In this document: positions 1 through 11,357 of the stretch, piece by piece
Position numbering within the stretch: position 1 is the stretch's first letter
How the letters are laid out: each line of letters begins with the position of its first letter
Assembly (NCBI GenBank): GCA_039025835.1
Contig: JBCCNM010000002.1
Span: forward strand, 116-64,115
Reading direction: 5' to 3'
Length of the DNA stretch: 64,000 nucleotides
Source of the DNA: Pseudomonadota bacterium
GTDB taxonomy: Bacteria; Pseudomonadota; Gammaproteobacteria; Steroidobacterales; Woeseiaceae
Program-made: the position numbers and the translations under genes
The notes under the pieces: generated by a model
Databases searched by the model: none
The model's input: the letters and a program-made list of their open reading frames with translations, nothing else
Told to the model about the DNA's origin: nothing

Positions 1-189
1 ACGCTACACGCCGCGTGTTTTACGACGATGTACGCGCACATCGACCCTTCCCTGCTAGTGGTACTGCTGCCCTTTGCGCTGCTGGTCGCTGCGTCTCGCA
101 TCATCCTCGGCCTGCATTATCCGAGTGACGTCATCGTTGGCGGGAGCATCGGCCTCGCTCTGGCCAGTGTGGGTATCGCTTTCCTCTAG
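1..189 (+). CDS. PAP2-family lipid phosphatase, C-terminal fragment (5' end outside window)
   Basis: Frame 1 is open from base 1 to TAG 187-189. Translation ...AASRIILGLHYPSDVIVGGSIGLALA... carries the PAP2 C3 motif SRxxxxxHxxxD plus a terminal hydrophobic helix. Confidence 0.7.
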   Translation, partial: TLHAACFTTMYAHIDPSLLVVLLPFALLVAASRIILGLHYPSDVIVGGSIGLALASVGIAFL

Positions 190-1597: not shown

Positions 1598-2812
1598 CTA
1601 GCTGCCTGTAGGGGCTGCCTCGGTGGTCTCGTCGTTTGGCCCTGCCAGACCGCTTTCGCTGTCGCTCAGCAGTGTCTGGCCGCCCAGAACGATACCCGGC
1701 AGCAGGAAGAACACACTGAAAATGTATGCGAACGCATAGCCGCGGTTTTCTTCCGTCTTCATTCCCAGCCACAGGGCGGCACGCACGGGCAAATCCTTCA
1801 GAATCGGCACAAGGGAAAACAACAGGACACCGAACACGTTGTAGAACAGGTGCACAAGCGCGATTTGCAGCGCAAAGACACCGAACTCGCCAGAGACCGA
1901 CGTTGCGGCCAGCAGCGCGGTAATGCAGGTACCGATATTCGCGCCCATCGTGAACGGGAACACTTCCCTGACCGTTAAAACGCCAGAACCTGCCAGCGGT
2001 ACAATCAGGCTGGTGGTGGTCGAGGACGACTGCACAAGTACGGTGATGACGGTGCCCGACGCGATACCGCGAACCGGTCCACCGCCAATAGCGCTTTGCA
2101 CGATGTTGCGCGCACGCCCCGTCATTACGGCTCTCAGCGACTTGCCGAGCAACAATACCGATGACATGACCATCGCAATACCGATCGCAATCACCAGCAG
2201 TGCCCCAACGGTGGTTGGCAGGAATTCAAGCGCACTGACCAGGTATTTGGCGACCGGTTTGGTGACGGCTCCGAGCACGTTGAAGCTACTGACGGATGCA
2301 TCCGGTCCGGACGCAAAAATCTGCGCTGCCGCCCCGCCAAGTTTTTCCAGCGGGCTGAACAGGATTTCGATCGGAAGAAATATCAGGATGCAGAAGAAGT
2401 TAAAAAAGTCGTGGACTGTTGCCGCCTGGAAGGAGTTTCGAAACGCTAAACGCTCACTGAAATTGCCGAGGCTGACAATGGTGTTGGTGATCGTTGTGCC
2501 CATGTTGGCACCCATGATCATCGGTACGGCGATGCTGACGGGGACACCACCGGCTACGAGGCCGACGATCACGGACGTTACGGTGCTGGACGACTGCACG
2601 AGCGCGGTGGCCAGCGTGCCGAGGATGACGCCGACAACGGGGTTGCTGGCAAATTCGAAGATGCGCGTTGCGCCGTCGGCGCCACCGGATATCCACTTGA
2701 ATCCGGCGCCGATCACGCTGACGCCAACCAGCAGCAGGTAAACCAGCAGGATTACCGTCAGCCAGGTCGCAGGCCCGCCGGCACCGCGTTGCGGTTGGTG
2801 AAAATCGGTCAT
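1598..2812 (-). CDS. Na+/phosphate cotransporter family protein (NptA-type)
   Basis: 404-aa polytopic membrane protein with the duplicated Na/Pi-cotransporter repeat (..ALVQSSSTVTSVIV.. and ..VLVQSSSTTTSLIVPL..). Confidence 0.8.
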   Translation of the reverse strand: MTDFHQPQRGAGGPATWLTVILLVYLLLVGVSVIGAGFKWISGGADGATRIFEFASNPVVGVILGTLATALVQSSSTVTSVIVGLVAGGVPVSIAVPMIMGANMGTTITNTIVSLGNFSERLAFRNSFQAATVHDFFNFFCILIFLPIEILFSPLEKLGGAAAQIFASGPDASVSSFNVLGAVTKPVAKYLVSALEFLPTTVGALLVIAIGIAMVMSSVLLLGKSLRAVMTGRARNIVQSAIGGGPVRGIASGTVITVLVQSSSTTTSLIVPLAGSGVLTVREVFPFTMGANIGTCITALLAATSVSGEFGVFALQIALVHLFYNVFGVLLFSLVPILKDLPVRAALWLGMKTEENRGYAFAYIFSVFFLLPGIVLGGQTLLSDSESGLAGPNDETTEAAPTGS

Positions 2813-3014
2813 TCGAATTTGACTCCAGGGTCAGAAAAGGACGCGCGGGGCCAGGCGGGAATCACGACCCGGCAGCCCGGCGCGGCACACGGTAGCCCGC
2901 AGCGAATCCACGTGCAACCGGTACCGGGTCGTGTGCCATAATTCGCCGGCGCAGCGGGCCTCGGGCCAACGATTCGCCCTGCGTCCCCGGCCCGTGCCAT
3001 CATTGAGCACCGCT

Positions 3015-4160
3015 ATGTTCAGCCTGTTCCTGCTAGCCTTGTCTCGATACCTGTCCCTGCTCGTCATGGCGGTGGCCGCGGTATTCGATCGACGCCGACG
3101 GATAAGCGGACGGTTGCTCGTCTTTGTGCTGACACCGTTGTTCATCATTGCCCAGCTGCTGACGTGGGTGTTCTGGCTGCTGGACGAGGTGTTTTTCTCA
3201 CGCTATCGCGATGTAGAGATTCGGGAGCCGCTGTTTGTGATCGGCCCTCCGCGCACGGGTACCACCTTCATGCACAAGGTCCTCGCTGCCGACGAACAGA
3301 CCACAACCTTTCGTCTTTGGGAGTGCCTGTTCGGGGTCACAATCTGCGGGCGCAAACTGTGCCGCGGACTCGTATGGCTCGACCGGCGATGTGGTCGCGC
3401 GGTCTCCAAGCTGGGGGCACGCTGTCTGCAGGGACTGCAGTCGTCGATGGACGAGGTGCATCCTCTTGGGCTCGCCGAGCCGGAGGAGGACTTCCTGCTG
3501 TTCCTGCCGTTGGCGTGCTGTTTCCTGATCTCGGTGCCATTTCCGGAAGCTCGCTGGCTGTTTGCTTTTTCACGATTCGATACGAGTGTGTCACCACGCG
3601 ATCGCAAGCTGTACCTGCGCTGGTATCGGCGCTGTATCCAGAAGCACCTGCACATGAACGCGCCGGACGCGCGATTCCTGTCCAAGAACGCATCGTTTGC
3701 TGGCACGGTGAACAGCCTGCTGGGCGAGTTTCCGGACGCCCGCATCATCAGCACCTGGCGTGACCCGATGGAATCCGTTCCATCCCAATTGAGCTCGCTT
3801 CGACCCGCGCTGGGCGCACTGGGGTTTTCACGTTACGACGAGACATTCAAAACAGCGCTGGTTGACCAGATGGTGTTCTACTACACCCACCTCGGCACCG
3901 CGGAGCGACTACAGCAGCAGCGCATCGCCCGCATCGATACGCTGGCCATGCGCGAGCACCTCGAGCGAAGCGTCCGAGAAGCGTTTTTCAAGCTTGATCT
4001 CGACGTGTCGGACAGCCTCGCTCAAGAACTTGAACAACGCGCGGAAGCGTCCCGACGGCACAGCTCGGCCCACGCCTACTCGCTGGACGAATTCGGGCTC
4101 GACGAGGAACTGCTAAGATCGCGTTTTGATCTCGACCCCCCCGAGTCGAAACCCGGGTAA
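3015..4160 (+). CDS. membrane-anchored PAPS-dependent sulfotransferase
   Basis: Track ORF is 2931-4160. ATG 3015 starts two hydrophobic helices (MFSLFLLALSRYLSLLVMAVAAVF.., LLVFVLTPLFIIAQLLTWVFWLL). A 5'-PSB loop GPPRTGTTFMHKVL and a 3'-PB-like RFLSKNASF follow. Confidence 0.65.
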   Translation: MFSLFLLALSRYLSLLVMAVAAVFDRRRRISGRLLVFVLTPLFIIAQLLTWVFWLLDEVFFSRYRDVEIREPLFVIGPPRTGTTFMHKVLAADEQTTTFRLWECLFGVTICGRKLCRGLVWLDRRCGRAVSKLGARCLQGLQSSMDEVHPLGLAEPEEDFLLFLPLACCFLISVPFPEARWLFAFSRFDTSVSPRDRKLYLRWYRRCIQKHLHMNAPDARFLSKNASFAGTVNSLLGEFPDARIISTWRDPMESVPSQLSSLRPALGALGFSRYDETFKTALVDQMVFYYTHLGTAERLQQQRIARIDTLAMREHLERSVREAFFKLDLDVSDSLAQELEQRAEASRRHSSAHAYSLDEFGLDEELLRSRFDLDPPESKPG

Positions 4161-4162
4161 CC

Positions 4163-5317
4163 ATGCGATCCATTGCGGCAAAACAGGCGGCGTCGATCGA
4201 CGAATTCATGCGTCTGCCGGACGACGAACCGACCGGGCGCGTCGGGCGCGTCGTTATCGTGTCGGACTCGGTGCCGGAACGAAACGGTGTCGGCGCCTAT
4301 TACCAGGACCTGACCGATCAACTCGCCGAACAGTGTGACCAGGTGGGTTTTCTGTGTCCGGACGGCCGTCGCAAGCTGCTAAAAATCCCGCTACCCGGCG
4401 ACCCGACCCAGAAAATCTGGTTCCCGTCGTACCGTGAATATTCCGACACGATGCGCCGCATGCAGCCGGAGTGCATCATCGCCGCGACACCCGGACCGTT
4501 CGGCCTGCTGGGTGCGTATTTCGCGCGACGCCTGAGTATTCCGCTGGTCGTTGGCTTCCATACGCACTTCTCCGGTGTCACGGACCAGTACAGCAATGCG
4601 TTTCTCAGGACGTTCAGCCGCTTCTATTTCAATGTCGCCGACTGGGTCATGTTTCGCTACGGCGATCTCGTGCTGGGCAACTCGGAGGCCATGGTGGAAC
4701 TGGCGCTGTCGCTTGGCGCGAAACGTGCCGAGGTTATGGGCACCCTGCTACCTGTGACCTCGCTGAACAAACCGACGACACCCTTGCGGGACACGGTATC
4801 GCACGTCCTGTTTGCCGGCCGACTGGCACCGGAGAAACGCGTGCAGTGGATCATCGATGCCGCAGAAGCCCGGCCGGACGTAACCTTCACGCTGGCCGGA
4901 GATGGTCCACTGGGCGACGACGTTGCCGCTGCCGCGGCACGTCTGCCGAATCTGAACTGGCTGGGCTGGGTAGGCCGTAGTGAGCTGCTGGACGCGATGG
5001 ACGTCGCCGACCTGCTCGTACTGCCGTCCGTGGTGGAATCGTTTGGCACCGTCGCACTCGAAGCGATGGCGCGACAGCGACTGGTCTTGGTGACGCCGAC
5101 CTGCGGTATCGTGGAATGGCCGGATCTTGTCAGCCAGCTGTTCGTTCTCGGCGACGGCGAGACCGTCGCCGATGCGATCCGGCGCATTGCTGCGCTGTCG
5201 GTTGAGCAGCGGCAGCAGACTGCACGGAATGCGTCCACGGCGGCCCGGGCGCTGAATGCCAACAGCATCCGGCACTGGCTCAGCCTGCTGGAAACAGACG
5301 ACGCTGATGCCGACTAG
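4163..5317 (+). CDS. GT4 (glycosyl transferase group 1) family glycosyltransferase
   Basis: 384 aa, starts 2 nt after the sulfotransferase stop. N-terminal VVIVSDSVPERNGVGAYY and C-terminal ..LVLPSVVESFGTVALEAMA.. (E-x7-E) are typical of GT4 retaining enzymes. Confidence 0.75.
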   Translation: MRSIAAKQAASIDEFMRLPDDEPTGRVGRVVIVSDSVPERNGVGAYYQDLTDQLAEQCDQVGFLCPDGRRKLLKIPLPGDPTQKIWFPSYREYSDTMRRMQPECIIAATPGPFGLLGAYFARRLSIPLVVGFHTHFSGVTDQYSNAFLRTFSRFYFNVADWVMFRYGDLVLGNSEAMVELALSLGAKRAEVMGTLLPVTSLNKPTTPLRDTVSHVLFAGRLAPEKRVQWIIDAAEARPDVTFTLAGDGPLGDDVAAAAARLPNLNWLGWVGRSELLDAMDVADLLVLPSVVESFGTVALEAMARQRLVLVTPTCGIVEWPDLVSQLFVLGDGETVADAIRRIAALSVEQRQQTARNASTAARALNANSIRHWLSLLETDDADAD

Positions 5318-6020
5318 AACGCGGCAGCGCCTCCTCGTCGTGTCCATTCACGACGTCATGCCGGAAACCCTGCCGCAGACACGGACCCTGTTCGACAAAT
5401 TGCGGGCGGCCGGACTCGACCGCGTCACGCTGCTGGTCGTACCGGGCCGGTCGTGGGGCGATGACTCGCTTTCGGCACTGAAGCAGCTCGTGGACGACGG
5501 GGCGATTCTCGCCGGCCACGGTTGGAACCACCGTGTCGATGCGATCCGCGGCTGGCGGCATCAACTGCACAGCCGACTGATTTCCCGCGACGTCGCGGAA
5601 CACCTCGCACTCGACGCGGCCGGTATTCGCGACCTCGTAGCGCGTTGTCACGCCTGGTTTGTCGAGCACGAGCTGCCGGTCTCGGATCTTTACGTACCGC
5701 CGGCCTGGGCGATGGGCGCCATCAGCAGCACGGAGCTCGCGGCTTCACCGTTTCGCTTGTTCGAAACCTTCGGCGGTGTCCTGGACACCGCGGACGGTCG
5801 CTTCCGGCGTTCCGCGATGGTGGGCTTCGAGGCAGACAACCTGCTTCGCGTGGTGTCCTGTGCGGTGTGGAACCGGCTGAACCTGTCGGTCGCAGGTTTC
5901 GACTCACCCGTGCGCGTAGCCATCCACCCAAACGACCTGTCGCTCGGTATGGCGAAGTCACTCGAGCGGCTGATCGATCGCGGCGGGCGATCGCTTACCT
6001 ATGGATTGCTGGCGGCCTAA
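5307..6020 (+). CDS. DUF2334 / polysaccharide-deacetylase-like protein
   Basis: Track ORF is 5256-6020. The internal ATG at 5307 overlaps the GT4 stop by 11 nt. LLVVSIHDVMPETL..VTLLVVPG..LAGHGWNH.. resembles DUF2334 predicted deacetylases (from memory). Confidence 0.5.
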   Translation: MPTRTRQRLLVVSIHDVMPETLPQTRTLFDKLRAAGLDRVTLLVVPGRSWGDDSLSALKQLVDDGAILAGHGWNHRVDAIRGWRHQLHSRLISRDVAEHLALDAAGIRDLVARCHAWFVEHELPVSDLYVPPAWAMGAISSTELAASPFRLFETFGGVLDTADGRFRRSAMVGFEADNLLRVVSCAVWNRLNLSVAGFDSPVRVAIHPNDLSLGMAKSLERLIDRGGRSLTYGLLAA

Positions 6021-7627
6021 TCCGGACGTTCCCGCCAGTAGGCGTCGAGTCGCGCTTCGGCCTGATCACCGAACAGGACGCGACAGAGCTCCAGCAGACC
6101 CGGGTCGTCGCGCAGCACGTTCTCACGCACAACAAGGCTGATCTTCGAGCGTCGACGCAGAAAGTCATCGAGCCGGGTGATCATTTCTTTCTCCGCCGTG
6201 TGCTCGATTTCACAGCGCAGGTATTCCGCCTCATCGACGAGGCGCTCCGCCATGCGCGGATCGCGGCGGATCGCGTCCAGCATGCCGAACGCGTCGGCAC
6301 CGTAGCGACGCCAGAAGCGCTTCGAGAGTTTTTCCATGGAGCGTTCATCGGCCATTGCGTCCAGATTCATCGCGGCGGCGTCGGCGAAGAATCGCGCCCG
6401 CGTCACCGCGTCAGGTTCGCCATACCAGTCGTCAGCATCGTTCAATTCCAGGCCGAGTTCAGCCACCAACTCCGCGACCTCCTCGCCGACATTGACGCAG
6501 TCGGTAATCTTGCCACCGAAAATGCTGATCTGGGCGCGATTCCGGTCAACTTCGATCGCGTGCTTGCGCGACAGGCTGATCCAGTCCGCATCACTGCCGC
6601 CGCCGCTGACGGCCAGCGGCCGCACGCCGCAGCGTTCGGCAATGATGTCGTCGCGCGTCAGTGGAACTTTGAGATCGAGCAGTTCATTGGCGTTAGCGAG
6701 CACAAATTCACGATCCGCTTCTGTCACGGAAGGTAGTGGGTCGTCGACGCGGGTATCGGTGGTGCCGATACAGGTTTTTGGCCCCATCGGCATGACAAAA
6801 AACAGCCGGCCGTCGCTGGCGAAAAACGCGAGGATGCGGCGCTCATTCATCATCCGATCCACGACGAGATGAATGCCTTTCGACAGGACGTGGCGGTGCT
6901 CGGTGGTGACATCACTCTCGGCGTTAACGTCATCAACCCAGGGACCGCAGGCATTCACCAGCACACGCGCCCTGATCGCCAGTGACTCGCCACTCTCCAG
7001 GTCGCTGGCGTCGATCTGCCAGTCGTTCCCCTCACGACGAAACGCCGTGGCTTCGACATAGTTGGCGGCTGCGGCGCCGCGATCGAGTGCGTTGCGGACG
7101 AAATTCCAGACGAAGCGGGAATCGTTGTCGTGCAGGTAACAGTCGGAATACTCCACACCCCCGACCGCATCTCGCACGTCGATCAGGGGCTCTCGTCGCT
7201 TGAGCGCTGCACGGGACAAGTAGGCCGGCGCGCGCGTGTGAAAACGACCGAACGCCCAGTACAGCAAAGCCCCCAGGTAGATTACGAAGGCCGGCTTGCG
7301 GAAATCGCGCTCGACGGTTGTCAGGAAGCGGATCTCCCGTACCGTGGACGGGTAGCTCTCGTTCAGGTTGTTTCGACTGCCGCAAAGATCCCAGACCAAA
7401 CCGGCCTCACCGGACTCAAGATACTTGATGCCGCCCCAGGCGAGGTTGGAAGACTGCGAACTGGTGGCACCGCCAAAGTCACCGCGGTCGATCAGGGCAA
7501 CGTTCAGGCCTCGAGCCGCAAGAACCGATGCCGACACCGCGCCGTTGATGCCTGCTCCGACGATGCAGACATCGAATGCGCCGGAGCGCAACCGCTCGAG
7601 CTGGGTATCGCGGCGCACGTCAGACAA
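6017..7627 (-). CDS. FAD-dependent glycerol-3-phosphate dehydrogenase/oxidase-like protein
   Basis: 536 aa with N-terminal dinucleotide fold FDVCIVGAGINGAVSASVLAARG. GATSSQSSNLAWGGIKYLE and the C-terminal alpha-helical GlpD-type domain are also present. Confidence 0.75.
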   Translation of the reverse strand: MSDVRRDTQLERLRSGAFDVCIVGAGINGAVSASVLAARGLNVALIDRGDFGGATSSQSSNLAWGGIKYLESGEAGLVWDLCGSRNNLNESYPSTVREIRFLTTVERDFRKPAFVIYLGALLYWAFGRFHTRAPAYLSRAALKRREPLIDVRDAVGGVEYSDCYLHDNDSRFVWNFVRNALDRGAAAANYVEATAFRREGNDWQIDASDLESGESLAIRARVLVNACGPWVDDVNAESDVTTEHRHVLSKGIHLVVDRMMNERRILAFFASDGRLFFVMPMGPKTCIGTTDTRVDDPLPSVTEADREFVLANANELLDLKVPLTRDDIIAERCGVRPLAVSGGGSDADWISLSRKHAIEVDRNRAQISIFGGKITDCVNVGEEVAELVAELGLELNDADDWYGEPDAVTRARFFADAAAMNLDAMADERSMEKLSKRFWRRYGADAFGMLDAIRRDPRMAERLVDEAEYLRCEIEHTAEKEMITRLDDFLRRRSKISLVVRENVLRDDPGLLELCRVLFGDQAEARLDAYWRERPD

Positions 7628-8105
7628 TATACGGTTTGACCGAGTTAATCAGGACGTCGGCATCGCAGGGCTTTTCGAGACAACCAGTGACGGGAATGTC
7701 GCCAAGCTCCTGGCGAACGACATGCTCTTCGTCGACACTGAGAACGATGATGTTTGCGCCTGGCATAAGCGACAGCGTCTCCACGATGGTTTCGGGTCCG
7801 GACATGCCGGGCATAGACATGTCCTGCAAGATAACGCCGATCGTGGCTCCATGCATCTGCACCTGATTGAGGGCATCGAGGCCGTTGTTCGCCTGCAGGA
7901 CATTGAGACCGGCGTTCTCCAAAATCTCGACAATAAGGCCCCGGACGAGGTCGTGGTCATCTACCACGAGCACGGACTTGGGTCGTGCCTGAGAGTTCGG
8001 TCCGGTAATAGGCAGGTCTCCGACGGCCAGGTTGGGTGCAACTGCTTTGCTCGGACGCCTAGATTCTGGCACAGAGCCCTTGGCAGTAAAAGCGCCTCGG
8101 GACAA
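7620..8105 (-). CDS. single-domain response regulator (CheY-like receiver); start uncertain
   Basis: Receiver motifs VLVVDDHDLV ... ILQDMSMPGMSG ... PVTGCLEKP. The roughly 45-aa N-terminal extension is unsupported. The stop overlaps the GlpD-like start by 8 nt. Confidence 0.75.
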   Translation of the reverse strand: MSRGAFTAKGSVPESRRPSKAVAPNLAVGDLPITGPNSQARPKSVLVVDDHDLVRGLIVEILENAGLNVLQANNGLDALNQVQMHGATIGVILQDMSMPGMSGPETIVETLSLMPGANIIVLSVDEEHVVRQELGDIPVTGCLEKPCDADVLINSVKPYIV

Positions 8106-8618: not shown

Positions 8619-9386
8619 ATGAATCGCGACCTCGTTCTCGCCCTGTTCTTGATACTCGTCGTTGCCGCAGCCGGCTGGTGGCTGTTCTCACCCTCCGAAT
8701 CGCCACCAGCGCCAAAGATCGCAGCGCCGGCCGAAAACAGTGAACCCGAGCGCCCCGCTGAACCGGTATACCGCGTGCCAAGCATGCAGGGGCCGCGTGA
8801 GCTCGTCGATCTGCCGTCGCTCGACGACAGCGACGCTTACTTCCGGCTCGAATTGCGCAACCTCTTCGGGACGACGCTCGATCGTCTGCTGATTGAGTCG
8901 GGGGGCATCGAACGCTTCGTTGCGACGATCGACAATCTGCCACGCAAAACCGTCGCTGACAGCATTCGTCCGCTACGGCCGGTAGCCGGCGCTCTGCGCG
9001 TCGTCGATGGCGAAATCACCGCTGCAAACGCTGAACGCTACGCCCCGTATGTGGCCCTTTTCACCGCAAGCGATATCGACGAACTCGTCGGTGCCTACCA
9101 GCGTTTTTACCCGCTGATGCAGGAGGCGTATCAGCGGCTCGGCTACCCGGACGGCTACTTCAACGATCGTGTCATCGTCGTTATTGATCATCTGCTGCAG
9201 ACGCCGGCAATCGACGAACCGCTGGCGGTCACACAGCCGCATGTGCTGTATGAATTCACCGATCCGTCACTTCAGTCGCTGTCAGCCGGTCAGAAAATCC
9301 TGCTGCGTATTGGTCCTGAGCACCGGAATGCAGTGCAACAGCGGCTGCGCGAACTGCGCAGCCGCCTGACCCGACTCGACGGCTAA
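8619..9386 (+). CDS. conserved membrane-anchored hypothetical protein (DUF3014-like)
   Basis: 255 aa with an N-terminal TM helix (LVLALFLILVVAAAGWWLF). The family assignment is from memory only. Confidence 0.4.
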   Translation: MNRDLVLALFLILVVAAAGWWLFSPSESPPAPKIAAPAENSEPERPAEPVYRVPSMQGPRELVDLPSLDDSDAYFRLELRNLFGTTLDRLLIESGGIERFVATIDNLPRKTVADSIRPLRPVAGALRVVDGEITAANAERYAPYVALFTASDIDELVGAYQRFYPLMQEAYQRLGYPDGYFNDRVIVVIDHLLQTPAIDEPLAVTQPHVLYEFTDPSLQSLSAGQKILLRIGPEHRNAVQQRLRELRSRLTRLDG

Positions 9387-10477
9387 GCGGCCGCGGCTGC
9401 CGCCCACGCAGCCAGCACCTCGGCTTCCTTGTCGGCCGGTATACCGCTGCGCAGAGTCGCCTGGCGCTCTTCGGGCAATCCCTTGAACCAGTCGAGGGTG
9501 GCGCGAACCGTGTCCTCGACGGGGCGGATCGTCAATCCCGCCTCCAGCGACTTGTCCGCGGACCAGGACAGAGAACCGGCCATCGGATTGTCGCTGCCGG
9601 CCCACATCTGAATCTGCCGCCACGGCATCAACTCGTGCTGCGCGAGGAATTCCGCCGGCACCCATTCGAGCTCGGTGCTCTGGTCGGTCACCGCCACGCA
9701 GGCATCGAGCACGTCGCCCATCGGCAGCGGCGGGCAAATCACGTTGTAACTGTCGGTCAGCCGGGCTTCGAGGCAATGCACCATGAACGCCGCGAGGTCG
9801 CGGACGTCGATGTACTGCGTCAGATCACCAGGCTTGCCCGGCGCGAGCATCCGCCCACCTCGGTCCGCGCGCAACGGCCAGTAGGTAAAGCGATCCGTCG
9901 GGTCGCGTGGGCCGACGATCAGCCCCGGTCGAATCTGCGTCACGCGACCGGGCATCGCTTCTTCGGCCGCACGTTCGCAGTACGCCTTCAGCGCGCAGTA
10001 GTGAGTGCCCACGTCCTCCGTGGTCGGATCGTCGAGCACGGCGCGCGGGGTTTCTTCGGTTCGAAATTGAGGCCCTTCCAGCCAGCCGTCGTACTGGCAG
10101 ATGGTCGAGACGAACAGGTACTGCTCCGCCTGGTCGGCCATCAACTGGCTGGAAGCTCCGACGATGCGCGGCACATAACCGGACGTGTCGATCACCGCGT
10201 CAAAATTGCGCCCTCGCAGAACGGACAGTCCGTCATCGACGGTCGGATCGCGGTCGCCCACGAGTTTTTCCAATTCCGGAAAAAGGTCGTTGTTGCTGCG
10301 CCCGCGATTGAACAGCGTCACGTCATGGCCGCGGTCCAGCGCGTACTGCACGGTGTGCGGACCGAGAAACCCGGTGCCACCGAGAAACAGAATTTTCAAT
10401 GATTTGGCATGCGCCGTGAGCGGCAGCGCGCCCGCGGCTGCGGCGGCGCCGAGAAAGGCTCGACGATTGATCTGCAT
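9383..10477 (-). CDS. NAD-dependent epimerase/dehydratase family protein with Tat signal
   Basis: Track ORF extends to 10675. The internal ATG at 10477 gives MQINRRAFLGAAAAAGALPLTAHA (twin-arginine signal). A Rossmann ILFLGGTGFLGPH follows. Confidence 0.7.
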   Translation of the reverse strand: MQINRRAFLGAAAAAGALPLTAHAKSLKILFLGGTGFLGPHTVQYALDRGHDVTLFNRGRSNNDLFPELEKLVGDRDPTVDDGLSVLRGRNFDAVIDTSGYVPRIVGASSQLMADQAEQYLFVSTICQYDGWLEGPQFRTEETPRAVLDDPTTEDVGTHYCALKAYCERAAEEAMPGRVTQIRPGLIVGPRDPTDRFTYWPLRADRGGRMLAPGKPGDLTQYIDVRDLAAFMVHCLEARLTDSYNVICPPLPMGDVLDACVAVTDQSTELEWVPAEFLAQHELMPWRQIQMWAGSDNPMAGSLSWSADKSLEAGLTIRPVEDTVRATLDWFKGLPEERQATLRSGIPADKEAEVLAAWAAAAAA

Positions 10478-10535
10478 AGTGATCTCCCCCTGTACGCTGC
10501 AGTGAGAGCGAGTATGCCGACAAAAGTTCCTGCCG

Positions 10536-11357
10536 TCAGTCCGGCTGGCACGCCGGGCACTGGTAAAACTGACGGCCACCGACATCGATGCGTCGAATTT
10601 CTTCACCGCACGCGTAGCAGGCCTCCCGATCACGGGTGAACACGTAATGACGGTACTTCGCATAGCGAAGGCCACGCGCTTTTAGACGCTTGGCCAGCGT
10701 CGCGGTGACGGTAACACCACGCGTGCGGTAGGCGCGACGACAGATTTTCAGCGTGTCACGCGCTAGTCGCCCAAGTTGCCTGCGGTCAAGGTCAGCAGGA
10801 CGCTTTGCCGGCGACACGCGCGCCGACCACAGAATCTCGGAGCGCAGGTAATTGCCTATCCCCGCCAGGAATTTCTGGTCGAGGTACAGAGCGCCAAGAG
10901 AGCGGCGCCGGAAGCGGTCGCTCGACAGACGCTCGACAATGCTGTCGCTGCTCAGGCTGTCGTCGAGCACGTCCGGACCGACATTACGCAGGAACGGGTG
11001 CAAGTACAGTTCGGATTCGTGCATCAGCGAGACGTCGGTGGCGCTGTACAAGCGGGCCGTGTGCGTCGGTGTGTCGAAGGCCACGCGCAGAGAGCGTGTC
11101 GTGCGCGGCAGTTTCGGCAACTTGCTCGTGTACCAGCGGCCATACAGTTGATTGTGGCTGTAGAGCACGAGTCCGTTGTCGAATCGAGTCAGCATGGCCT
11201 TGCCGCGCGTGTCGATAGCCGTGATCCGTGCACCGTCGAGTTCCTCACTCCGGTTGCGCAGTGCCGGGATCGTAAACTCGATCCGCTGCAGCGGCTGGTC
11301 AACCAGAATCTTTGCAATTTTGTCGGCCGCCAGACGTATCTCAGGACCTTCCGGCAT
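10536..11357 (-). CDS. nei: endonuclease VIII (Fpg/Nei family DNA glycosylase)
   Basis: The internal ATG gives the N-terminus MPEGPEIR, the Nei catalytic Pro2/Glu3 signature. H2TH region and C-terminal zinc finger CYACGEE...YQCPACQ are present. Confidence 0.85.

Follow-up and report, generated by a model that had tools for sequence, protein, structure and literature searches.

A conserved sulfotransferase–glycosyltransferase–DUF2334 module related to gpgSDF and its candidate role in forming a sulfated aminoglycolipid in bacteria

Results

A compact three-gene block

We analysed a stretch of 64,000 nucleotides from a gammaproteobacterial genome of the family Woeseiaceae (GenBank assembly GCA_039025835.1, contig JBCCNM010000002.1, positions 116 to 64,115), hereafter called the window, and concentrated on three adjacent genes of its forward strand that encode a sulfotransferase (ST), a family 4 glycosyltransferase (GT4) and a DUF2334 protein. 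The first gene (3015-4160, ATG start) encodes an ST of 381 amino acids of the type that uses 3'-phosphoadenosine-5'-phosphosulfate (PAPS); it belongs to the Stf1/Stf9-like Sulfotransfer_3 family and has a hydrophobic helical hairpin at the N-terminus, ahead of the catalytic domain. The second (4163-5317) encodes a GT4 of 384 amino acids, a member of a retaining family with GT-B architecture, and the third (5307-6020) a DUF2334 protein of 237 amino acids, a predicted metal-dependent de-N-acetylase of the carbohydrate esterase family 4 (CE4) fold and a paralogue of GpgD. Neither of these two proteins contains a transmembrane (TM) segment. The ATG at 5307 taken as the start of the DUF2334 gene agrees with the N-termini of its homologues. 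The initial annotation of this DNA had described a compact block in which a 2-nucleotide gap (4161-4162) is followed by an 11-nucleotide overlap, and its open reading frame (ORF) coordinates are borne out. A promoter and terminator scan of positions 2700-6300 found neither a sigma-70 consensus nor a terminator; the lack of any promoter- or terminator-like site inside the trio fits a single transcript.

The trio is inherited as one unit

A search with the ST gave 404 matches, and a 27-sequence alignment scanned over one genome per species yielded 360 confirmed relatives, from which 80 loci were kept. Searched by tblastn with the window proteins, 74 of the 80 loci revealed all three genes, and the six others end at a contig edge directly after the ST or GT4 gene. 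Wherever all three genes are visible (74/74 loci) they lie on one strand in the order ST-GT4-DUF2334, an arrangement that is far beyond chance. The identities to the three window proteins also co-vary across loci (Spearman 0.77-0.86). Clustering of all flanking ORFs of the 80 loci produced no fourth conserved gene, the next most common cluster being found in 10 of them. Pfam annotation of 81 flanking ORFs from 14 diverse loci returned otherwise unrelated housekeeping genes, and no gene for polysaccharide or lipopolysaccharide (LPS) synthesis, export, polymerization, flipping or initiating transfer was present among them. The suggestion that the three genes act as one unit, for which the initial annotation had proposed a co-occurrence analysis, is thus supported by their strict linkage and by their unrelated flanks. 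The same annotation had counted the embedding of the operon in an exopolysaccharide (EPS) or LPS locus of relatives as evidence against a lipid pathway; such embedding was not seen in the 14 diverse loci.

Judged by record titles, most hosts are Gammaproteobacteria of marine or saline origin, including Woeseiaceae, Wenzhouxiangellaceae, Saccharospirillum, Teredinibacter and Gynuella as well as Halioxenophilus, Pseudohongiellaceae, Haliea and Cellvibrionaceae. Some titles point to other phyla (Ardenticatenaceae, Planctomycetaceae, Hydrogenedentota and Gemmatimonadota), although these are labels of metagenome-assembled genomes in which binning errors are possible. Within the family of the window the ST is present in 21 of 151 sampled genomes (9/37 of the same genus and 8/9 of another genus), so that the module is an accessory trait with a patchy distribution. 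Taken together, the trio is an autonomous, self-contained and widely shared module.

Two genomes with damaged or incomplete gene sets deserve mention. Genome G207 (locus L114, around 3800-5400) carries a frameshifted GT4 gene of the trio type and a truncated DUF2334 gene with an internal TAG, the ST being absent upstream; this locus seems to be what remains of a decaying module. In genome G422, the ST frame (contig C51:17416-18564) is interrupted by one internal TAG, and this genome (100% complete) is the sole high-quality ST-positive genome without a match to adenosine-5'-phosphosulfate (APS) kinase. Both cases, anecdotes of one genome each, are consistent with an interdependence of the genes.

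The DUF2334 protein has a CE4 deacetylase fold and residues invariant in GpgD

The third protein matches PF10096 (DUF2334, E 3.2e-9) in Pfam, and its sole match in NCBIfam, over the full length, is GpgD (NF053788, E 2.5e-16). GpgD is likewise the sole NCBIfam match of each of the 29 of 29 members of this DUF2334 family. The initial annotation had proposed a Foldseek comparison, and this places the AlphaFold2 model of the protein (pLDDT 92.3) in the CE4/NodB deacetylase fold: the best matches are enzymes that deacetylate acetylxylan, chitin and peptidoglycan (E 1.8e-7 and weaker, TM-scores 0.5-0.6), followed lower down by the deacetylase domain of human NDST1 (8ccy, E 6.8e-5, rank 38) and by ArnD, a deformylase with a lipid-linked substrate (rank 41). 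A search of the DUF2334 profile against PDB sequences gave no significant match.

Residues H15, D16, H71, G72, H75, E98, R203, H207, P208 and D210 are invariant in an alignment of seven trio-type and five GpgD sequences, and a V-x-P-A-W stretch (130-134) is also common to both groups. The invariant positions form the motifs HD, HGxxH and RxxxHPxD, recognized here as motifs of the sequence alignment. The protein is therefore predicted to be a CE4-fold deacetylase whose sole characterized relative is GpgD, and the sugar handled by the trio would then most likely be N-acetylglucosamine (GlcNAc), converted to glucosamine (GlcN). The choice of GlcNAc draws on analogy and on the fact that the deacetylase is present and conserved.

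The glycosyltransferase matches the GpgS model best, by a narrow margin

The GT4 carries the Pfam domains PF13692, PF00534, PF13439 and PF13579. Its best NCBIfam model is GpgS (NF053787), in all 30 of 30 family members and with a best E of 6.7e-18, although with a narrow lead over TuaC and BshA. In a quick IQ-TREE analysis the trio GT4s, GpgS and a second GT4 of the lineage of the window formed three clades with supports of 99, 98 and 99, while two other GT4s of the same genome sat on very long branches. The GT4 profile retrieved only generic GT4 and glycogen-synthase matches from PDB sequences, which are uninformative on the acceptor.

An Stf-like sulfotransferase with a hydrophobic N-terminus

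The first protein of the trio belongs to PF13469 (Sulfotransfer_3, E 1.1e-15), scoring 59 bits where the cut-off is 27. The two PAPS-binding motifs reported by the initial annotation, PRTGTT and RFLSKNASF, are real: in the alignment of 27 members their core residues P78, P79, R80, G82, T83 and T84, and L222, S223, K224, N225, S227 and F228, are invariant and define the motifs GPPRTGTT and, following a beta-strand, LSKNxSF. The ST profile matches the PDB sequences of Stf1 (2zq5, E 2e-20) and Stf9 (2z6v, E 3.8e-14). With the AlphaFold2 model (pLDDT 86.6), Foldseek returned Stf9 and Stf1 at E values of about 1e-10 to 1e-11, and VIA-align gave Z 30.6 over 350 residues for Stf9 and Z 29.0 over 336 for Stf1. 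One relative of the ST is annotated in its source record as an Stf3-type menaquinone sulfotransferase, and a search of the ESM Atlas with the ST retrieved only clusters labelled 'sulfotransferase'.

The genome of the window encodes an APS kinase (PF01583, 234 bits, contig C68), so PAPS can be made in the host. As a co-occurrence signal this enzyme was rejected, since it is found in 18 of 21 ST-positive genomes and in 126 of 151 genomes overall (a family tally that includes the unpublished genome G325) and does not discriminate between them.

The initial annotation had placed two TM helices at the N-terminus of the ST. The second (residues about 30-60) stands, with TM-grade hydrophobicity in 27/27 members; the first (residues about 2-22) reaches that grade in only 15/27, and both have counterparts in solved structures, as discussed below. 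Insertion of the ST into the membrane or its association with it is likely from this hydrophobicity pattern.

A sister cassette of gpgSDF

Khan, Palmer and Guan (2025, PMC12713373) describe a Pseudomonas aeruginosa pathway in which GpgS, a GT4, adds GlcNAc to phosphatidylglycerol and GpgD (COG3233) deacetylates the product to GlcN-phosphatidylglycerol, the third gene encoding a predicted flippase, GpgF. The evidence given there consists of transposon-mutant lipidomics, gpgD complementation and work in which gpgSDF was expressed in Escherichia coli.

Among 301 genomes of the class of the window (a sample that includes the unpublished genome G296), matches to the GpgD model are bimodal, with nine over the cut-off, one just under it and 13 weak ones. 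True GpgD genes of this sample score 293-366 bits, and all five strong loci that were retrieved have the arrangement GT4-DUF2334-LPG_synthase_TM, that is, gpgSDF. All nine weak-match loci that were retrieved are ST-GT4-DUF2334 trios; the other weak matches are the genome of the window itself (which carries the trio), the G207 remnant, one unrelated match and one that was not retrieved. No genome of the class sample has more than one DUF2334 match and none holds both cassette types. PF03706 (LPG_synthase_TM, the gpgF type), which all five true gpg loci carry, has no match in the genome of the window, which is 96.7% complete.

In both cassettes the GT4 gene lies immediately 5' of the DUF2334/COG3233 gene, and both proteins are soluble and predicted to be cytoplasmic. 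They differ in that the trio lacks the GpgF flippase and starts with a sulfotransferase gene. Identities are only 24-28% for the deacetylases and 22-26% for the GT4s, and the scores against the GpgS and GpgD models fall far under the equivalog cut-offs, which indicates a sister or paralogous cassette and not an orthologue of gpgSD. As far as sequence and gene order tell, the trio is a sister cassette of gpgSDF with a sulfotransferase in the flippase's stead. The initial annotation had modelled the operon on GT4 enzymes that, next to PlcP, make phosphorus-free glycolipids from diacylglycerol; the phosphatidylglycerol pathway of gpgS and gpgD is a closer model than PlcP/Agt glucosyl-diacylglycerol synthesis, and the DUF2334 deacetylase is no bystander.

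Fusions connect the sulfotransferase with the glycosyltransferase and with membrane domains

Searching 1.84 billion representative proteins with the ST profile gave 7318 relatives at E <= 1e-3 and 787 clusters at E <= 1e-30. Sixteen of the best 150 relatives are longer than 500 amino acids, and all 16 are fusions: ten ST-GT4, one GT4-ST (with a different GT4), three VTT/DedA-ST and two GtrA-ST. Against the trio-GT4 profile, the GT4 halves of the ten ST-GT4 fusions reach 360-494 bits and GpgS only 40-57. At locus L104 (genome G199) a GtrA-like gene is followed by a single ST-GT4 ORF and then by a DUF2334 gene with an 11-nucleotide overlap. When all stored loci were searched with VTT and GtrA queries, L104 was the only one with a GtrA gene beside the trio. 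A metagenome locus (L117) carries a GT4 gene (cut), a DUF2334 gene and, overlapping by 4 nucleotides, a VTT-domain gene in the position that gpgF holds in gpgSDF.

The GtrA and DedA/VTT families consist of small integral-membrane proteins that have been connected with the translocation of lipid-linked sugars, polyprenyl phosphates or phospholipids. A GtrA domain comprises four TM helices; adding the two ST helices, the catalytic domain of a GtrA-ST fusion would therefore be cytoplasmic, where PAPS is. Of the computational evidence, we regard these fusions as the strongest sign that the ST and the GT4 share a pathway, which would operate at the membrane on a lipid.

The VTT/DedA-ST fusion proteins (P0139, P0146 and P0166) are about 620-650 amino acids long. 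At another locus (L116:852-2807) a VTT-ST fusion lies 3' of a GT4 too diverged to match the window GT4, and no DUF2334 gene is found beside it within the short contig. Fusions of this type may represent a variant module without a deacetylase.

Genes around the trio and their regulation

The context genes listed by the initial annotation are all present. On the upstream side, the window starts within a PAP2 phosphatase gene (1-189, forward strand), cut by the contig start so that only the C-terminal part remains; its 5' part lies on contig C176. It is followed on the reverse strand by genes for the diacylglycerol kinase DgkA (204-587; PF01219, E 3.8e-34), a calcineurin-like metallophosphoesterase paralogous to LpxH (669-1457; PF00149, PF12850) and a sodium/phosphate (Na/Pi) cotransporter (1598-2812; PF02690) that is divergent from the trio. 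The intergenic region between this last gene and the trio (2813-3014) is presumed to hold the promoter. Downstream lies a convergent gene (6017-7627, reverse strand) for a GlpD-like FAD oxidoreductase with DAO and DAO_C domains (250 bits against the GlpD model, cut-off 360), the glycerol-3-phosphate dehydrogenase-like gene of the initial annotation. Its 3' end overlaps that of the DUF2334 gene by 4 nucleotides (6017-6020), leaving no room for a terminator between them.

The initial annotation had pointed out that the operon sits among these lipid and phosphate genes, but the wider comparison shows that they do not belong to the conserved unit: the esterase is adjacent in 2/80 loci, dgkA in 3/80, the Na/Pi gene in 7/80 and the GlpD-like gene in 2/80. 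The lipid-metabolism neighbourhood is specific to this lineage. No Pho box was found near the trio when up to three mismatches to the E. coli consensus were allowed; the window holds three matches against 4.5 expected by chance. Since the neighbours are rarely adjacent and no E. coli-type Pho box was found, a link to phosphorus stress is possible for this clade and is not a property of the module.

The window esterase scores 45.8 bits against the LpxH model, and the true LpxH of this genome (contig C80) scores 324.6. It could be PlcP-like. PlcP genes often adjoin genes for glycolipid glycosyltransferases (PMC4796936). Contig C176, which adjoins the start of the window, corresponds to the sequence upstream of dgkA in the two closest relatives. 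Besides the 5' part of the PAP2 gene it encodes (locus L110) the second GT4, for which GpgS (72.9 bits) and the monoglucosyl-diacylglycerol synthase N-terminus are the best models; this enzyme may act in the lineage as its Agt-like glycolipid synthase. Beyond the second GT4, a relative (L001:285-2879) has a phosphatidylserine decarboxylase gene, where C176 has instead a peptidase M14 gene and a GGDEF gene. In another relative (L004), an alkaline phosphatase gene was identified by Pfam, with a Na/Pi gene (by tblastn) between it and the ST gene.

An alignment of the intergenic regions of eight loci with a divergent Na/Pi gene revealed no motif in common with the window. Five Woeseiaceae-type loci (L004, L006, L018, L029 and L038) have in their Na/Pi-ST intergenic region an element of about 25 bp, GTAAC-N9-GTTAC(A/G)G. 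The window and its two closest relatives lack this element, which may be the operator of an uncharacterized regulator. On the downstream side, synteny is kept in the closest relatives (L001-L003) through genes for a stand-alone response regulator (7620-8105), a DUF3014 protein (8619-9386) and an epimerase-like protein of 430 amino acids (9383-10675). The identity of this epimerase-like protein (84-87% in L001 and L002; 73% in L003, where the match is partial) is the highest of any neighbour apart from the Na/Pi gene.

Discussion

What has been observed comprises the assignment to families, the folds, the conservation of predicted catalytic residues, the strict linkage of the three genes, the fusions and the presence of an APS kinase. 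These observations lead us to lean, by analogy with gpgSDF, towards a pathway in which the trio places GlcNAc on a membrane glycerolipid, N-deacetylates it and then sulfates it to yield a sulfated aminoglycolipid. We infer which sugar is donated, which lipid accepts it, in what order the steps run and where the sulfate is placed. In this scheme the GT4 would transfer GlcNAc from UDP-GlcNAc to phosphatidylglycerol, as GpgS does, or to diacylglycerol, and the DUF2334 protein would remove the N-acetyl group, as GpgD does, to give a glucosaminyl lipid. The ST, which its hydrophobic N-terminus would keep on the cytoplasmic side of the membrane, would finally perform a PAPS-dependent sulfation of the headgroup, either on the freed amine, producing a sulfamate according to the logic of the heparan-sulfate NDST enzymes, or on a hydroxyl. 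The strict co-inheritance of the deacetylase and the ST fits the need for a free amine in the sulfation step, but is no proof of it, and within the lipid pathway we see N- and O-sulfation as about evenly balanced. A more specific version, in which the trio would be a split bacterial counterpart of NDST acting on a lipid, the Stf-like enzyme N-sulfonating GlcN to form an N-sulfoglucosaminyl glycerolipid, which would bear a sulfamate and be permanently anionic, and a GtrA- or DedA-type protein serving as translocator in some lineages, is a tentative idea that we consider rather unlikely in this full form.

Several observations weigh against a sulfated aminoglycolipid, or at least against parts of the scheme. 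The window proteins stand at a distance from the characterized enzymes, with 59.9 bits for DUF2334 against the GpgD model (equivalog cut-off 280) and 44.5 bits for the GT4 against the GpgS model (cut-off 480). The TuaC and BshA models score nearly as well as GpgS for the GT4, and the GT4 tree does not settle the mutual order of its three clades, including a sister relation of the trio GT4s to GpgS, so that donor and acceptor are assigned by analogy. The sulfated atom is not readable from the fold, since N- and O-sulfotransferases tie in VIA-align (NDST1/1nst at Z 12.8-13.0, 3-OST and TPST at Z 12.3-13.6). Both N-terminal helices of the ST superpose on the N-terminal helices of the solved Stf9 and Stf1, and the loop between them is rich in arginine (DRRRRISGR), which misfits a simple in-out-in hairpin whose loop would be periplasmic. 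Among the 80 trio loci no gene of the flippase type is conserved. Finally, the GtrA and DedA families are chiefly associated with polyprenyl-phosphate carriers, which keeps a pathway on a lipid carrier in play.

Such a carrier is central to an alternative in which a polyprenyl-phosphate-linked sugar or an envelope glycan (LPS, capsule or EPS, peptidoglycan or glycoprotein) is modified, an amino sugar being added, deacetylated and sulfated on the carrier, then flipped and passed on. The structural matches of DUF2334 to ArnD, which acts on an undecaprenyl-phosphate-linked sugar, and to peptidoglycan and chitin deacetylases are compatible with it, as are the STs fused or adjacent to GtrA-like and DedA/VTT domains, with their polyprenyl-phosphate connection, and the nearly equal scores of TuaC and other polymer-type GT4 models. 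However, no Wzx/Wzy, phosphoglycosyl transferase, GT-C or export gene and no further glycosyltransferase is conserved in the 80 loci or seen in the 14 examined closely, the trio spans phyla with very different envelopes, and the sole characterized DUF2334 enzyme acts on a glycerophospholipid (PMC12713373). We therefore judge this alternative unlikely. The preference of the initial annotation for a sulfated membrane glycolipid over a surface polysaccharide is accordingly favoured, without being settled, by the lack of EPS/LPS flanks in 14 loci and by the ST-GT4, GtrA and DedA/VTT fusions.

Removing the product from the membrane altogether, one could imagine a soluble sulfated glucosamine metabolite, such as an osmolyte or a compound of the low-molecular-weight thiol type, made through a GT4 and deacetylase route resembling that of bacillithiol or mycothiol. 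BshA and MshA are indeed among the models matched by the GT4, neither the GT4 nor DUF2334 has TM segments, and the record titles of many carriers point to marine or saline samples. Set against this are the hydrophobic N-terminal helix of the ST in 27/27 members, its fusion to the integral-membrane VTT and GtrA domains, and the fact that the closest relative of the deacetylase works on a membrane lipid (PMC12713373); a soluble product thus seems quite improbable to us. Least probable of all, and very doubtful in our eyes, is a phosphate-starvation route along the lines of the initial annotation, in which a PlcP-like esterase frees diacylglycerol, the GT4 adds a neutral hexose and the ST sulfates it, DUF2334 being an accessory. 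The surroundings of the trio in the window (LpxH-paralogous esterase, dgkA, PAP2, Na/Pi and the second lipid-type GT4), the alkaline phosphatase and Na/Pi genes of L004 and the frequent position of PlcP genes beside glycolipid glycosyltransferases (PMC4796936) would suit it, but the esterase and the Na/Pi gene are so rarely adjacent to the trio and no Pho-box-like site was found. Moreover, an acetylated sugar is to be expected, because DUF2334 is linked in 74/74 loci and keeps the residues of a deacetylase.

We found no published description of the trio, nor of a DUF2334 function beyond GpgD, in the literature searched. There was likewise no report of a sulfated glucosaminyl bacterial lipid or of a bacterial lipid N-sulfotransferase in that literature, whose coverage did not extend to species descriptions with polar-lipid profiles in subscription journals. 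If the sulfated aminoglycolipid is real, it would constitute a new class of charged bacterial membrane lipid with a permanently charged headgroup, phosphorus-free if built on diacylglycerol and doubly anionic if N-sulfated on phosphatidylglycerol, and it would bear on membrane charge and phosphorus economy in marine bacteria. With 360 confirmed relatives in the species-representative set, the trio would concern hundreds of genomes. Cultured, non-pathogenic carriers include Saccharospirillum salsuginis KCTC 22169, Wenzhouxiangella limi C33, Teredinibacter sp. ISS155 and Halioxenophilus sp. WMMB6.

The nearest structural relatives of the ST are the mycobacterial Stf enzymes, namely Stf1 of Mycobacterium tuberculosis and Stf9 of Mycobacterium avium, which share with it the whole-length fold, including the N-terminal helices, and the PAPS-binding motifs, despite identities of only 17-21% to the window protein. 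Another member, Stf3, is lipid-sulfating and forms the sulfated menaquinone S881; to our knowledge it is the only one of the Stf-like family with a known substrate, and we know of no mycobacterial stf gene located in a GT4-deacetylase operon. PMC3141025 lists stf3 among four sulfotransferases of M. tuberculosis.

The chemistry that we propose has a parallel in NDST1, which combines a CE4-like GlcNAc N-deacetylase with a PAPS-dependent sulfotransferase that acts on the freed amine, and both trio models match its domains. It differs in being one fused Golgi enzyme working on a polysaccharide, and the trio ST is no closer to N- than to O-sulfotransferases. A second parallel is the tailoring of Nod factors, in which a glycosyltransferase, a NodB/CE4 deacetylase and the PAPS-dependent sulfotransferase NodH work on one GlcNAc-based, lipid-bearing molecule. 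Nod factors are built by a GT2 synthase of chitin oligomers, are acylated by the NodA acyltransferase and carry an O-linked sulfate; the trio differs by having no equivalents of NodA or NodC beside it. The two precedents diverge for the last step, as NDST deacetylates and then N-sulfates, whereas the Nod system pairs NodB with an O-sulfotransferase.

Closer to membrane lipids, the PlcP-Agt system (PMC4796936) also places a lipid-type GT4 beside a phosphoesterase, and the lineage of the window has a second GT4 and an LpxH-paralogous esterase nearby. Agt, however, makes neutral or acidic hexosyl-diacylglycerol without a deacetylase or a sulfotransferase, and that neighbourhood is not conserved with the trio. 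The hexSDF genes of Clostridioides difficile, for aminohexosyl-hexosyl-diradylglycerol, follow the same synthase-deacetylase-flippase logic without a sulfotransferase, when set beside the trio by description; they are named as an analogue of gpgSDF in PMC12713373. If our proposal holds, the trio would add to these systems a second, sulfated branch of the gpgSD chemistry, itself worked out only in 2025, and would provide the large Stf-like family with a physiological substrate.

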